Of a stretch of 5,451 bases of DNA, positions 756 through 5,451 are shown one piece after another (position 1 is the stretch's first letter; each line of letters starts with the position of its first letter). The notes under the pieces are model-generated. The model worked only from the letters and a program-made list of their open reading frames with translations. It did not search any database and was not told the origin of the DNA. Source of the stretch: a virus; the IMG/VR virus record IMGVR_UViG_3300045988_015028, positions 1 through 5,451 of that record. One strand, given 5' to 3'. A program made the position numbers and the translations under genes.

Positions 756-803
756 TGTCACCTTGACCAGTTACCTACTTGATAGTAACTGGTCAAGGTG
801 ACA
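756..803 (+). promoter_or_regulatory. Perfect 19-bp stem-loop whose 10-nt loop is CTACTTGATA. Candidate (+)-strand replication origin and Rep (VP4) nick site. An alternative role is a terminator or RNA-stability hairpin after VP3.
   Basis: Nt 756-774 (tgtcaccttgaccagttac) are the exact reverse complement of nt 785-803 (gtaactggtcaaggtgaca). The loop at 775-784, ctacttgata, matches 9 of 10 positions of the phiX174 gene A protein minimal substrate CAACTTG/ATA. No T-tract follows the stem. Confidence 0.6.
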
Positions 804-2591: not shown

Positions 2592-3392
2592 ATGTCATTT
2601 CTTGGTTCTGCTCTTGGAGCTGTTACTGGTGGCGTTTCATCTATCATTGGTGGTGCTCTCTCTAACTCTGCTGCTCGCCATGCTGCAACGGTAGCTAATC
2701 AGCGTAATGTATATAATTATCAGCATCGTTATCAATGGGCTATGGATGATATGCAAAAGGCTGGACTTAATCCTATGCTTGCTGCTACGCAAGGTATTGG
2801 TGGTTCTGTTAATGGTGCTTCTGCCCTCTCCTCTAATTATAATCTTGGTGAAGGTGTTACTGCTGGTATGTCTGCTCAGGCTGCTGGTAGCTCTGCTAAG
2901 GCTGCTCAGAAGCAGGCAAATACTGCAGAAGCTGTTGGCCAGGGTACTGTTAGAAAACTTGATTCTGACGTTGCTTTAAATGCTGCTTCTGCAAAGAATT
3001 TTGAAGCTGAAACTGCTGGCAAAACTATTGCTAATAAGTTAGCGCAGGATACATATAAAGATAATGTTGCTTTGTATAAACAAAATTTAGCTAATGCTCA
3101 AAAGCAAGGTGCTCTTATTGACGAACAGACAAAAAATGCTTTTTACCAGCGTGATGTCGTTATGCCAGCTCAAGCTAATATGATGATTGCTCAAGGAAAC
3201 TCTGCTAATTCTTCTGCTGCATATAGTAATCAGCTTGCTCTTCAATCTAAAGAAGCTACTGACCGTGCTTCTATGCAAAATGAGATGCGTGGTAAATATG
3301 GCTTTGATACTGATTCTTCTATTGCTGGTGCTATTGGTGGTTCTTTCAGTAAGGCTCTTGATAAAGCTAAGAAAACTTTTTTTGGAAGGTGA
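2592..3392 (+). CDS. VP2: Minor capsid / DNA pilot protein, VP2-like.
   Basis: 266-aa ORF directly after VP1, with AAGGAG at 2577-2582. It has a Gly/Ser/Ala-rich N-terminus, followed by YQWAMDDMQKAGLNPMLA, which resembles the (D/E)(L/M)(K/Q).AGLNP(I/M)LA block typical of gokushovirus VP2. The rest is Ala/Gln-rich and probably helical. Position and composition both fit VP2. Confidence 0.75.
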   Translation: MSFLGSALGAVTGGVSSIIGGALSNSAARHAATVANQRNVYNYQHRYQWAMDDMQKAGLNPMLAATQGIGGSVNGASALSSNYNLGEGVTAGMSAQAAGSSAKAAQKQANTAEAVGQGTVRKLDSDVALNAASAKNFEAETAGKTIANKLAQDTYKDNVALYKQNLANAQKQGALIDEQTKNAFYQRDVVMPAQANMMIAQGNSANSSAAYSNQLALQSKEATDRASMQNEMRGKYGFDTDSSIAGAIGGSFSKALDKAKKTFFGR

Positions 3393-3706: not shown

Positions 3707-3820
3707 ATGAAAAGAAGTAGAATTTCGCGCGGAAGCTCTCGCCGGAACTTTCGTAATCATGCCGTTCCGCGGCTTAAAAATCTTAAATCTCGTAACATGC
3801 GCGGCGGTATCCGCATGTAA
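3707..3820 (+). CDS. Small, highly basic 37-aa protein. Probable DNA-binding/packaging protein, the functional analogue of phiX174 J and gokushovirus ORF8/VP8.
   Basis: Hand translation gives MKRSRISRGSSRRNFRNHAVPRLKNLKSRNMRGGIRM, with 13 of 37 residues K or R and no acidic residue. AAGGAG at 3693-3698 lies 8 nt upstream of the ATG, and the stop TAA is at 3818-3820. It fills the otherwise unexplained gap upstream of VP4. At under 60 aa it is absent from the supplied ORF track. Confidence 0.7.
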   Translation: MKRSRISRGSSRRNFRNHAVPRLKNLKSRNMRGGIRM

Positions 3821-3837: not shown

Positions 3838-4782
3838 ATGACTTGCCTTAACCCGATGTTTGCTAAACGCTCTGCTGTGCCTAACGCTAACGGCAAGTAT
3901 GAGCTATCAAATTTTGTTGCTTATCGTCAGCTGTCCGGTAAATCTCTTGAATATGCCAAGGCTGAATTAGCTAATAATTATGCTGTTGTCGTTCCGTGCG
4001 GTCAATGCTTAGGCTGCCGTTTAGACAAGGCTAATGACTGGGCTATTCGTTGCGTCCATGAAGCAAAATTACATCTTCATAACTGCTTCATCACGCTGAC
4101 CTATAATGATGATTGCCTTCCAGCAGACGGCTCTTTACATCGCGACCACTTACAACTTTTTTTTAAGAGATTACGTCGCTATTTAGATTATCATGACAAT
4201 TCTAAGATACGTTTTTTGTGCTGCGGTGAGTATGGCGATCTTAATTGTAGGCCGCATTATCATATTCTGTGTTTTGGTTGGTTTCCTGCTGATGTTCGGA
4301 AAGTATCGGCGTTAACGGCTGGTTATAATCTTTTTCGTTCTCCCACGTTGGAGCGACTTTGGCCGTATGGTTTCAATACTGTTGGAGCTATCACTTTTGA
4401 ATCTGCCCGCTATGTTGCTAAATATTCGCTTAAAAAGCAGACCGGTAAGAATGCCTGCATGTATGACGCTTTAGGCATTGCCCCGGAGTTTGTCGGCAGT
4501 TCTTTAAAGCCTGGTATAGGTGCTGATTATTTTGGCCTTTATTCTGAGGATATTTTTAAATTAGGCTTTGTTACAATTAACGGAGTAAAATATAAAATAC
4601 CTCGCTATTATCAAACATTATTTGAGCGCAGCAACCCCGTTTGGTATAGTATATACAAGCAGCAAAAGGCCGAAAATGCAAAGGCTGCCGTTATCGATTG
4701 TAAAAGGTTGGAAGCTAAGGAAAAGATTATGAAGCACCGGCAGGAACAATTTGAGCGTGATTTTGCTATTTTAGGCTTGTAA
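3838..4782 (+). CDS. VP4: Rolling-circle replication initiation protein VP4 (HUH endonuclease, phiX174 gene A superfamily).
   Basis: Motif I is FITLTY (nt 4087-4104). Motif II, the HUH motif, is HYHIL (nt 4255-4269). Motif III is the two-tyrosine YVAKY..KK (nt 4411-4425 onward). There is also an N-terminal PCGQCLGCR cysteine cluster typical of microvirus Rep proteins. I prefer the ATG at 3838 (MTCLNP...) as the start. The ORF track opens at an upstream GTG at 3829, which cannot be excluded. Neither start has a strong SD. Confidence 0.93.
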   Translation: MTCLNPMFAKRSAVPNANGKYELSNFVAYRQLSGKSLEYAKAELANNYAVVVPCGQCLGCRLDKANDWAIRCVHEAKLHLHNCFITLTYNDDCLPADGSLHRDHLQLFFKRLRRYLDYHDNSKIRFLCCGEYGDLNCRPHYHILCFGWFPADVRKVSALTAGYNLFRSPTLERLWPYGFNTVGAITFESARYVAKYSLKKQTGKNACMYDALGIAPEFVGSSLKPGIGADYFGLYSEDIFKLGFVTINGVKYKIPRYYQTLFERSNPVWYSIYKQQKAENAKAAVIDCKRLEAKEKIMKHRQEQFERDFAILGL

Positions 4783-4810
4783 AAAGTTGTAAAAAGTTGC
4801 AAAAAGTTGT
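4776..4810. repeat. Three and a half tandem 10-nt units, (c/g)ttg(t/c)aaaaa. They give three A5 tracts phased at 10 bp, forming an UP-element-like or intrinsically bent region upstream of the promoter.
   Basis: The sequence reads cttgtaaaaa gttgtaaaaa gttgcaaaaa gttgt(tgaca). The A5 tracts are at 4781-4785, 4791-4795 and 4801-4805. The first unit overlaps the VP4 stop codon at 4780-4782. Confidence 0.8.
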
Positions 4811-4838
4811 TGACATTTGCTATTTCACATATTATAAT
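4810..4838 (+). promoter_or_regulatory. Perfect consensus sigma70 promoter: TTGACA, 17 nt, TATAAT.
   Basis: TTGACA at 4810-4815, a spacer of exactly 17 nt (4816-4832), and TATAAT at 4833-4838. Phased A-tracts lie at roughly -40 to -65. A GAGG Shine-Dalgarno (4852-4855) and the ATG at 4864 lie just downstream of the expected transcription start, near 4845. Confidence 0.8.
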
Positions 4839-4863: not shown

Positions 4864-5124
4864 ATGTTAAAAGATTACTATTATTCTTCATTCGTCGGTA
4901 CTAAATGTACTTTGAAGCCTTCTACCATTAAGGCCGTTAATGATATTCTTCTTATGCAAGCCTGCTTTAGCACCTATGGTCGTTATCGTGCTTATTGTAA
5001 GCGCGTGCAATCTTCCGGTAAATGCTTTCTTTGGCATGGTTTCTATCATGTGGTTACTGACGAGTGTAAAAACAGGCTTTTATGTATTTTAAAAGCTGAT
5101 TCTTTAAATGATGAGGTGGAATAA
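4864..5124 (+). CDS. Hypothetical 86-aa Cys/His-rich protein. It is an orphan ORF between VP4 and the VP5-like gene.
   Basis: The ATG at 4864 has GAGG at 4852-4855, 8 nt upstream. The longer TTG-initiated version in the ORF track (4807) would begin upstream of the predicted promoter -10, so it is disfavoured. The protein has 6 Cys and contains CKRVQSSGKCFLWHGFYH (C-x8-C-x3-H-x3-H). Its stop overlaps the next start (TAATG at 5122-5126). I recognise no family. Confidence 0.55.
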   Translation: MLKDYYYSSFVGTKCTLKPSTIKAVNDILLMQACFSTYGRYRAYCKRVQSSGKCFLWHGFYHVVTDECKNRLLCILKADSLNDEVE

Positions 5125-5405
5125 TGAAACTTTATTGTATTTATGACCGTAAAGGCGAGCTTATGAACCCGCCTTTCGTGCAACAAAATAATGCTATGGC
5201 TATCCGTCAATTTCAAATCATGGTTAATCAGCCTTCTACTCCGGAGCGTTCCAATATTATCCATGATTATCATGAGGACTTCGTTCTTATGTATCTCGGT
5301 GAATTTAATGACAAAACGTGTGAATTTTCCCCACAAAATCCCACTTTGCTTTTGTCTACCGCCACAGAACTATTGACTTCCCCACCCCAGACTGCTAAAA
5401 TTTAG
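5124..5405 (+). CDS. Small non-structural protein, gokushovirus VP5-like (tentative).
   Basis: 93-aa ORF with GAGGTG at 5113-5118 upstream. Its start overlaps the preceding stop by 1 nt. MKLYCIYDRKGELMNPPF...AMAIRQF...HEDFVLMYLGEFNDKTCEF resembles the pattern I recall for microvirus VP5-type proteins (MK.F.(I/V)YD.K.....PF......A.R.F .... EDY.L...G.FD...G). This is a memory-based call. Its position after VP4 fits VP5. Confidence 0.6.
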   Translation: MKLYCIYDRKGELMNPPFVQQNNAMAIRQFQIMVNQPSTPERSNIIHDYHEDFVLMYLGEFNDKTCEFSPQNPTLLLSTATELLTSPPQTAKI

Positions 5406-5451
5406 TTGTAAGGTACGCTTGCCCGCTTTCTCATTCTGTGGTATAATCAAC
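5397..5451. repeat. Terminal redundancy, right copy of nt 1-55. Most likely an assembly overlap of a circular contig rather than a biological repeat.
   Basis: Exact 55-nt identity with the window start. Microviridae genomes are circular ssDNA. An overlap of exactly 55 nt matches a commonly used de Bruijn k-mer size. Confidence 0.95.

Follow-up and report, generated by a model that had tools for sequence, protein, structure and literature searches.

How rolling-circle replication is initiated in gokushovirus-like phages is the question raised by a hairpin, SL1, in the IMG/VR virus record IMGVR_UViG_3300045988_015028. The window, i.e. the whole stretch of 5,451 nucleotides (nt) that was analysed, is a gokushovirus-like microvirus, and SL1 is located in the spacer between its genes VP3 and VP1. 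An earlier note, made from the letters alone, had proposed the loop of SL1 as cleavage site of the replication protein VP4 and hence as the (+)-strand origin. No paper locating a gokushovirus replication origin was found in the searchable literature. Our comparative analysis indicates that SL1 and the adjacent TGACAC box probably represent the VP4 nick site and the viral-strand (+) rolling-circle origin. The parts of this element are:

756-774, + strand: 5' arm of SL1, TGTCACCTTGACCAGTTAC
775-784, + strand: loop of SL1, CTACTTGATA, 10 nt, candidate recognition and cleavage sequence of VP4
785-803, + strand: 3' arm of SL1, GTAACTGGTCAAGGTGACA
797-804, + strand: conserved box GGTGACAC, 15 nt after CTTGAT

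A hairpin loop resembling known nick sequences

The arms of SL1 comprise 19 nt each and are 100% complementary, and no other perfect hairpin of the window is as long; the next best perfect stems have 8 base pairs (bp). The 210-nt VP3-VP1 spacer is filled by four hairpins, of which SL1 is the second; it folds as DNA with -38.4 kcal/mol (z = -8.5, reached by 0 of 200 shuffles) and as RNA with z = -6.6. A search of Rfam at SL1 returned nothing meaningful (mir-582 at E = 0.5 is noise), and neither iterons nor a repeat array were found within positions 640-960, just the one conserved box.

The loop CTACTTGATA matches the cleavage decamer of phage phiX174, whose record J02482 reads CAACTTGATATTAATAACACTATAGACCAC with the rep_origin annotated at 4306, in nine of ten positions, and the 14-mer CTACTTGATAGTAA of the window agrees with the phiX174 origin in 12 of 14. 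Within the window only the SL1 loop matches the decamer with at most one mismatch. Matches with at most two mismatches number 8 versus 6.5 expected, i.e. they are not enriched, and it is thus the placement in the loop rather than the presence of the motif that is unusual. The probability that a fixed 10-nt loop matches the decamer in at least nine of ten positions is 31/4^10 (about 3e-5, our own arithmetic). The decamer is reportedly the minimal single-stranded DNA substrate, a result attributed to van Mansfeld et al. 1980, and the nick of plasmid pC194 is said to lie at G/A, as attributed to Gros et al. 1987. The phiX174 protein A cuts between G4305 and A4306 (bioRxiv 10.64898/2026.07.25.740675), and by analogy VP4 would nick between G781 and A782. 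The minimal origin of pC194 contains CTTGATA (PMC7072734, RCORI36 sequence), and this core corresponds to positions 778-784 of the window.

The presumed enzyme fits this substrate. VP4 harbors an HUH motif (H140-Y-H142, nt 4255-4263) and the two-tyrosine motif YVAKY (Y192/Y196, nt 4411-4425), and HUH and YxxxY are invariant in an alignment of eight diverse VP4 proteins. Its only Pfam match is PF23343, and it exhibits weak local similarity to phiX174 protein A (BLASTP E = 1e-5). Because the loop equals the protein A cleavage sequence, contains the pC194 core and is accompanied by an HUH/two-tyrosine enzyme, a (+) origin is the best reading of SL1. Most of what the earlier note had read from the letters is thereby borne out: the perfect 19-bp stem as the strongest of the genome (756-774/785-803), its site between VP3 (274-717) and VP1 (928-2574), the matches of 9/10 and 12/14 now checked against the phiX174 record, and VP4 as a member of the gene A superfamily with a YxxxY motif. 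The same holds for its argument that a near-match somewhere is not rare while one that fills the loop is unlikely by chance, and for its contrast with phiX174, whose origin lies within gene A, with no pairing predicted for it.

Conservation and covariation across microviruses

With a VP4 profile, a further 79 genomes were retrieved from IMG/VR (34-44% VP4 identity). The conservation of SL1 was surveyed in 117 related genomes including Chp2, phiMH2K and SpV4, a set that is not phylogenetically independent and in which several clades are over-represented. A hairpin was counted if a perfect stem of at least 7 bp carried CTTG[AT]T in its loop. Such a motif-loop hairpin is present on the coding strand of 97 of the 117 genomes (83%), compared with 28 of 1,170 shuffled strand-genomes (2.4%), and in inverted orientation in nine more, bringing the share for either strand to about 91%. 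Among the perfect hairpins of the genome it ranks first in 65 cases and second in 18. Most of the remaining genomes have an inverted copy, a one-base variant (ACTAGAT, ACTCGAT) or a motif that is partly absorbed into the stem; the variants seen in genomes without the canonical motif are ACTAGAT, ACTCGAT, CTTGAC and CTTGTC.

All 15 close relatives of the window in IMG/VR (85-88% VP1 identity) retain the hairpin, with a loop that differs at its first and last base only. Their stem changes are compensatory, affecting two adjacent pairs in L005 and replacing C-G by A-T in L010 and by T-A in L014. Relatives with about 55% VP1 identity exhibit GCGTCACC-gaa-GCCAGTTAC-TTACTTGAT-GTAACTGGC-gta-GGTGACGC in the corresponding position upstream of VP1, and a third clade has CACCGGAACCAGTTAC-TTACTTGAT-GTAACTGGTTCCGGTG. 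The loop-proximal part CCAGTTAC of the 5' arm is conserved in sequence across clades, and covariation with the 3' arm is seen in the middle 4 nt. In an alignment of 23 distinct versions, ten of the 19 stem pairs have changed on both sides; the alignment was chosen by a pattern that fixes the loop-proximal 5' arm, and the invariance of the top five pairs is thus partly by construction. The covariation score of 0.334 compares with 0.118 ± 0.013 in shuffled alignments (reached by 0 of 500) and with at most 0.114 when the partner is slid. The earlier note had suggested comparing relatives for a stem that co-varies around an invariant loop, and had held that a loop not conserved among carriers of homologous VP4 would speak against an origin. 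The ten compensatory pairs, the retained loop core TACTTG(A/T)T and the 97 genomes with a motif-loop hairpin agree with its proposal in both respects.

This conservation extends to the type gokushoviruses and to several non-gokushovirus microviruses. Chp2, phiMH2K and SpV4, which infect Chlamydia, Bdellovibrio and Spiroplasma, respectively, each carry the motif in a hairpin that is the strongest of the genome or shares that rank, on unrelated stems:

Chp2: stem CTAGCGTATAACAG, loop TCTACTTGAT
phiMH2K: stem AGTTCGGCTAC, loop GGACCCTACTTGTTGTAA
SpV4: stem TGGGGCATAT, loop ATTACTTGTTATA

Among eight distant non-gokushovirus microviruses of GenBank the hairpin module was found in six, some with CTTGAC; the carriers include Parabacteroides phage YZ-2015a, an Eel River pequenovirus, and peat and tortoise microviruses. 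It is absent from two 6.4-kb genomes of this set of eight. In the 6.4-kb microvirus L167 (MG945757) no loop-borne motif was observed; an unpaired TTACTTGATAATA directly follows an 8-bp hairpin at about 5579-5600. This arrangement is closer to phiX174, and larger microviruses may use the linear form.

An extended module of hairpin and box

A comparison of 95 non-redundant module sequences that were anchored on CTTG revealed conservation beyond what the search pattern imposes. Upstream of CTTG, T is found at -2 in 71 and A at -1 in 80 of the 95 modules; after the motif, G occupies +6 in 68, T +7 in 74 and A +9 in 85. The loop core TACTTG(A/T)T is conserved in this set. The top of the stem, CAGTTAC/GTAACTG, is conserved in sequence as well, and its GTAACTG directly follows the motif in the 3' arm. 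A box of the type RSTGACAC(C) completes the module, and its TGAC begins 14-15 nt past the hexamer in 78 of the 95 sequences. The box of the window, GGTGACAC, pairs with 756-762, and this accounts for the great length of SL1 in this genome. The box of most other clades is located outside SL1 and is paired with a downstream partner as a second hairpin (L072, for example, has TGACACCaaaGGTGTCA); this second stem also co-varies between genomes. The origin proposed in the earlier note is supported by family-wide conservation and needs to be amended in its extent, given that the unit is larger than the loop and the module is common to the family.

The succession of heptamer, about 15 nt and a GAC(C)AC-type box parallels the 30-nt origin of phiX174, which has GACCAC at its right end, and the two boxes may be homologous. 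The module is intergenic at all 107 positions surveyed and overlaps no recognised gene. It follows VP3 in 103 of the 107 cases, either in the order VP3-module-VP1 (55) or VP3-module-(small open reading frames)-VP4 (48).

Prophages, a CRISPR spacer and integrated islands

Species-representative genomes were scanned for the conserved module core. Besides phage contigs, the scan recovered prophages of Phascolarctobacterium and Veillonella, a spacer from a CRISPR array, and two Alphaproteobacterial loci in which the complete module is part of a small island. The gokushovirus prophages in Negativicutes are represented by L133 (Phascolarctobacterium faecium DSM 14760) and also by L134, L140 and L130 (Veillonella). 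The L133 prophage of 4,533 bp is located between direct repeats ATATATATTATGTAAA at 2793-2808 and 7326-7341, and its module is intact about 95 nt inward of the repeat. The repeat resembles the Firmicutes dif core as it occurs in B. subtilis and suggests an XerCD-type integration outside Enterobacteria. An integration mediated by Rep at its nick site was rejected for L133, given the intact module internal to the prophage.

The CRISPR array is located on a metagenome-assembled genome (MAG) of Victivallales (L148:6714-8000) and has a 36-nt repeat with at least 18 units. Its 30-nt spacer CAGTTACCTACTTGATGTAACTGTGCGGAC is an exact match to the module core of a gokushovirus; it provides a link to a host and exemplifies immunity directed against the module.

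Integrase islands of about 4.3 kb in Micavibrio-like Alphaproteobacteria harbor the module without a recognisable capsid or Rep gene. Scanning metagenomes for further islands yielded two short contigs only, and additional ones were found via a protein-database search. The islands inspected are L144:2916-7208 (Micavibrio MAG), L131, L151-L153, L155, L157-L159 and L161. Their gene order is a P4-type integrase, a conserved protein of 246-250 amino acids (aa), an AlpA-like protein, a small zinc-finger protein, variable cargo (DUF5677, a ThsB-type TIR protein [ThsB_TIR], DUF4917) and the module. The L144 island has a 16-nt repeat of the tRNA-Glu 3' end at its boundaries and, with 4,277 bp, the size of a small gokushovirus genome. 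Compared with the integrated island, the 4,281-nt contig L152 exhibits a circular permutation, as an excised circle would. The 246-aa protein has 128 homologues, many of them on contigs of 3.9-4.7 kb. It was considered as a hidden Rep and rejected, as there was no Pfam match, a probability of 1% in hhalign against the VP4 profile and no HUH motif by eye.

The module was found in nine of the ten inspected islands, on a stem of its own in each; seven carry CTTG(A/T)T and two CTCTTGTCGT, a CTTGTC variant. The retention of the module alone is as expected of a cis-acting site that is used in trans by the Rep and packaging machinery of a phage, and suggests that the module is recognised in trans. 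Alternatives are a decoy function or an unrecognised island-encoded initiator. The islands are candidate satellites of gokushoviruses. Tentatively, the module may even constitute the complete portable cis replication and packaging module of the non-Bullavirinae microviruses. If so, the islands would be the first Microviridae satellites, replicated and encapsidated by a helper gokushovirus, and the orientation of the module would set the packaged strand, the roughly 8% of genomes with an inverted copy then being negative-sense microviruses. To our knowledge, no satellite of Microviridae has been described. Two modules with the same orientation and the loops ACAACTTGAT and TCCCTTGTT were observed 274 nt apart in L153:3495-3840, and a second, unpaired TCTACTTGAT is present at L144:6283-6292, about 20 nt past the box. 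Both could represent pairs of initiation and termination sites.

Weighing the functional alternatives

The most probable competitor is a complementary-strand (-) origin, in which primase, primosome or RNA polymerase of the host would enter at the hairpin on the packaged strand. SL1 is an intergenic viral-strand hairpin inside a cluster of co-varying hairpins, the phiX174 ori(-) occupies such an intergenic place (bioRxiv 10.64898/2026.07.25.740675), Olo Ndela et al. read the conserved hairpins of very small microviruses in this way, with reservations (PMC9865509), and islands that have to be converted into double-stranded DNA would need such a site. However, sites for host factors are expected to differ between hosts, and the same heptamer and box are found in phages of Chlamydia, Bdellovibrio, Spiroplasma and Negativicutes as well as in Alphaproteobacterial islands. 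A site that is read by the phage's own enzyme explains this conservation across hosts of different phyla, and a host-priming site does not. The loop moreover equals the nick sequence of two characterised Reps of the same superfamily, and two other hairpins are available nearby for the priming role. The remaining three hairpins of the spacer are:

730-748, + strand: SL0, a small hairpin upstream of SL1, invariant among 12 close relatives and hence uninformative on structure
806-863, + strand: SL2, outer stem 806-814/855-863 and inner stem 823-831/839-847
869-894, + strand: SL3, directly upstream of the VP1 ribosome-binding site

Compensatory changes were found in two outer pairs of SL2 (in 6 of the 12 relatives) and in two pairs of SL3 among the same 12; the replacements are CAG/CTG to ACG/CGT, A-T to G-C and G-C to C-G. 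SL2 and SL3 are natural candidates for the complementary-strand origin, SL2 being alternatively a candidate transcript element. We therefore regard a (-) origin at SL1 as rather unlikely, and a dual role of SL1 in (+) initiation and complementary-strand priming as possible.

A protein-binding site unrelated to nicking, such as a packaging signal, an operator (for VP5, VP8 or the small basic protein) or an XerCD/dif-like site, would account for an inverted repeat with conserved duplex parts and a flanking box. The attachment site of the CTX phage is an XerCD/dif-like site folded from single-stranded DNA, some gokushoviruses integrate at dif, and packaging of phiX174 is coupled to the origin. 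Such a function leaves the identity of the loop to a Rep nick sequence unexplained and is improbable as the sole role of SL1; a combined role in origin and packaging is compatible with the (+) origin. A dif/XerCD site in particular was rejected: the L133 prophage is flanked by dif-like repeats with the intact module about 95 nt away, and the geometry of SL1 (10-nt loop, 19-bp arms) is unlike the 28-bp dif with its two 11-bp arms and 6-bp spacer. Even less probable is a transcript element, i.e. a terminator, an attenuator or a hairpin for RNA stabilisation or processing between VP3 and VP1. SL1 lies between two highly expressed genes, its RNA fold is very stable, and the late-gene terminators of phiX174 are inefficient intergenic hairpins (bioRxiv 10.64898/2026.07.25.740675). 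Yet a coding-strand T-run is missing, the stem is followed by CAAAATCAG, and a terminator scan listed SL1 on the gene-less strand only, the canonical terminator being located elsewhere (86-125). Terminators do not conserve a loop sequence across a virus family, and the module occurs in either orientation to the genes (inverted in nine genomes) and on islands far from phage genes. Mimicry of a sigma-70 promoter was rejected, since the promoter scan found none at SL1 and the stems vary between clades. A chance palindrome with a chance motif match could point to the lack of enrichment of two-mismatch decamers in the window, but is contradicted by the occurrence in 83% of 117 genomes on the coding strand (about 91% if either strand is counted) versus 2.4% after shuffling, by the covariation of the stem and by the fixed distance of the flanking box, and is practically negligible.

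Several points weigh against the (+) origin itself. That VP4 nicks SL1, where it would cut and on which strand are proposals by analogy, and the phiX174 origin is not in a hairpin, so that a hairpin is not required by the Rep superfamily. The spacer between motif and box is not AT-rich as it is in phiX174. The survey pattern fixes six loop positions by construction, the genomes are not independent, with some clades over-represented, and about 9% lack the canonical motif, a few of them with nothing recognisable in its place. Finally, nine modules are inverted, box included; they reside on the strand that carries none of the genes, and the VP3-VP4 spacer is their location in every case. If the origin model holds, nicking and packaging in these phages would concern the antisense strand, for which no example is known to us from Microviridae; they would be negative-sense microviruses, should the module determine the packaged strand. 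The genomes concerned (L052, L090, L091, L092, L102, L112, L113, L114 and L120 of IMG/VR) stem from different samples, and the modules of L091 and L113 are near-identical, which makes an assembly accident unlikely. The distant GenBank genome L169 (PQ007383) also has its module on the strand opposite to the genes.

For the favoured (+) origin we infer the enzymatic steps, the exact nick position and the extrusion of a cruciform as follows. In the supercoiled replicative form, the perfect 19-bp inverted repeat would be extruded as a cruciform or be melted upon binding of VP4, and the loop CTACTTGATA would thereby become single-stranded. VP4 would dock on the conserved duplex parts, namely the stem top CAGTTAC/GTAACTG and the TGACAC box. 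One of its tyrosines would cut between G781 and A782 and become linked to the 5' phosphate, while the 3' OH of G781 would be extended by a host polymerase. After one round, the hairpin would re-form on the displaced strand and present the regenerated site to the second tyrosine, whose cut would allow the strand to be joined into a circle and packaged.

Relation to known systems

The (+) origin of phiX174 and other Bullavirinae, 30 nt in gene A, shares the nick core ACTTG/AT with the SL1 loop, and protein A and VP4 belong to the same Rep superfamily with HUH motif and two tyrosines. A comparable, putatively homologous GAC(C)AC-type box follows the heptamer about 15 nt downstream, and both sites are located on the coding (viral) strand, in the module's case in nearly all genomes. 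Unlike in phiX174, the module is intergenic instead of nested in the Rep gene, its presumed nick sequence is presented in the loop of a long hairpin, its spacer is a G+C-containing 3' arm rather than an AT-rich tract, and the box itself is in duplex. The origins of circular Rep-encoding single-stranded (CRESS) DNA viruses, which have a nonanucleotide in the loop, and of the plasmids pMV158 and pT181 resemble the module in displaying the nick site, here the presumed one, in the loop of an inverted repeat or cruciform with a stem-adjacent Rep-binding element. They differ in loop sequence, and the module has no iterons by the stem, VP4 is devoid of a superfamily 3 (SF3) helicase domain, and the lineages are unrelated. 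The PriA site of phiX174 (the F-G hairpin), the G4 oric and the plasmid sites ssoA and ssoU are likewise intergenic hairpins of the packaged strand and active only when single-stranded; in contrast to the module, these host-factor sites contain no Rep nick sequence and are not conserved across host phyla.

The double-strand origin of pC194/pUB110 has CTTGATA within a short palindrome, and its Rep is also of the HUH superfamily. However, the pC194-type Rep_1 uses one tyrosine plus a glutamate (PMC5703833) and belongs to a Pfam family different from that of the two-tyrosine VP4, and the flanking sequences are unrelated. The module islands share with P4 satellites and phage-inducible chromosomal islands (PICI) an integrase and an AlpA-type regulator, the lack of a recognisable capsid gene, variable defence-like cargo, a tRNA-adjacent insertion (at the two loci scanned; tRNA 3' end in L144) and a size that matches the helper capsid. 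Unlike in P4 and PICI, their presumed helper would be a microvirus, and what they hijack would be a rolling-circle origin.

Novelty and significance

No prior description of the element was found in the searchable open-access literature, an earlier mention in older genome papers being possible, and the phiX174 decamer as a literature search string retrieved primer lists only. In the paper that comes closest, a possible function as (-) origins is discussed for hairpins of very small microviruses (PMC9865509). A nick site in a hairpin loop and the phiX174/pC194 nick sequence are known; the apparently new points are that gokushoviruses and related phages are assigned this design, its bipartite architecture of hairpin plus box, and its breadth.

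In gut, marine and soil viromes, gokushoviruses and related phages belong to the most abundant single-stranded DNA phages, and the GenBank phage records contain 3,389 genomes with a VP4 homologue. The module of about 50 nt supplies VP4 biochemistry with a concrete substrate to be nicked, serves as a landmark by which thousands of metagenomic genomes can be annotated and oriented, and offers a cis element for gokushovirus phagemids or the production of single-stranded DNA in vivo. It links the unpaired origin of phiX174 with the hairpin-loop origins of other HUH replicons. As a sequence tag for prophages, CRISPR spacers and candidate satellites it also points to hosts, here Phascolarctobacterium, Veillonella, Victivallales and Micavibrio-like bacteria.

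Genome context and additional features

The window represents a circular genome of 5,396 nt, with positions 1-55 recurring at 5397-5451. All recognisable genes are located on the + strand. A near-identity DNA search against GenBank phages retrieved no close relative and only short matches to the capsid gene. The features are:

274-717, + strand: VP3 scaffold (PF09675), upstream neighbour of the hairpin module
928-2574, + strand: VP1 major capsid (Phage_F), downstream neighbour of the hairpin module
2592-3392, + strand: VP2-like open reading frame (ORF)
+ strand: 89-aa ORF
3707-3820, + strand: 37-aa basic ORF
3838-4782, + strand: VP4 Rep (PF23343), HUH rolling-circle Rep, presumed enzyme acting on the SL1 loop
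+ strand: 86-aa ORF
5124-5405, + strand: VP5 (PF20577)

In the close relative L005, an insertion in VP4 (…SEERRVGKECRSRWSPYH…) is followed by a duplicated VP4 stretch (5147-6199), which resembles an artefact (of assembly, or a chimera) more than a biological feature. The VP5-VP3 spacer of the window contains a promoter-like site at 23-51 (TTGCCC-17-TATAAT with TG) and, within 40 nt of it, two terminator-like hairpins (86-147), the first of which (86-116) has a long T-run. A perfect sigma-70 promoter, TTGACA-17-TATAAT, is located at 4810-4838. Three tandem 10-nt repeats (TTGTAAAAAG, TTGTAAAAAG, TTGCAAAAAG) at the end of VP4 lead directly into it (4777-4838) and could represent an operator, an UP-like element or iterons.

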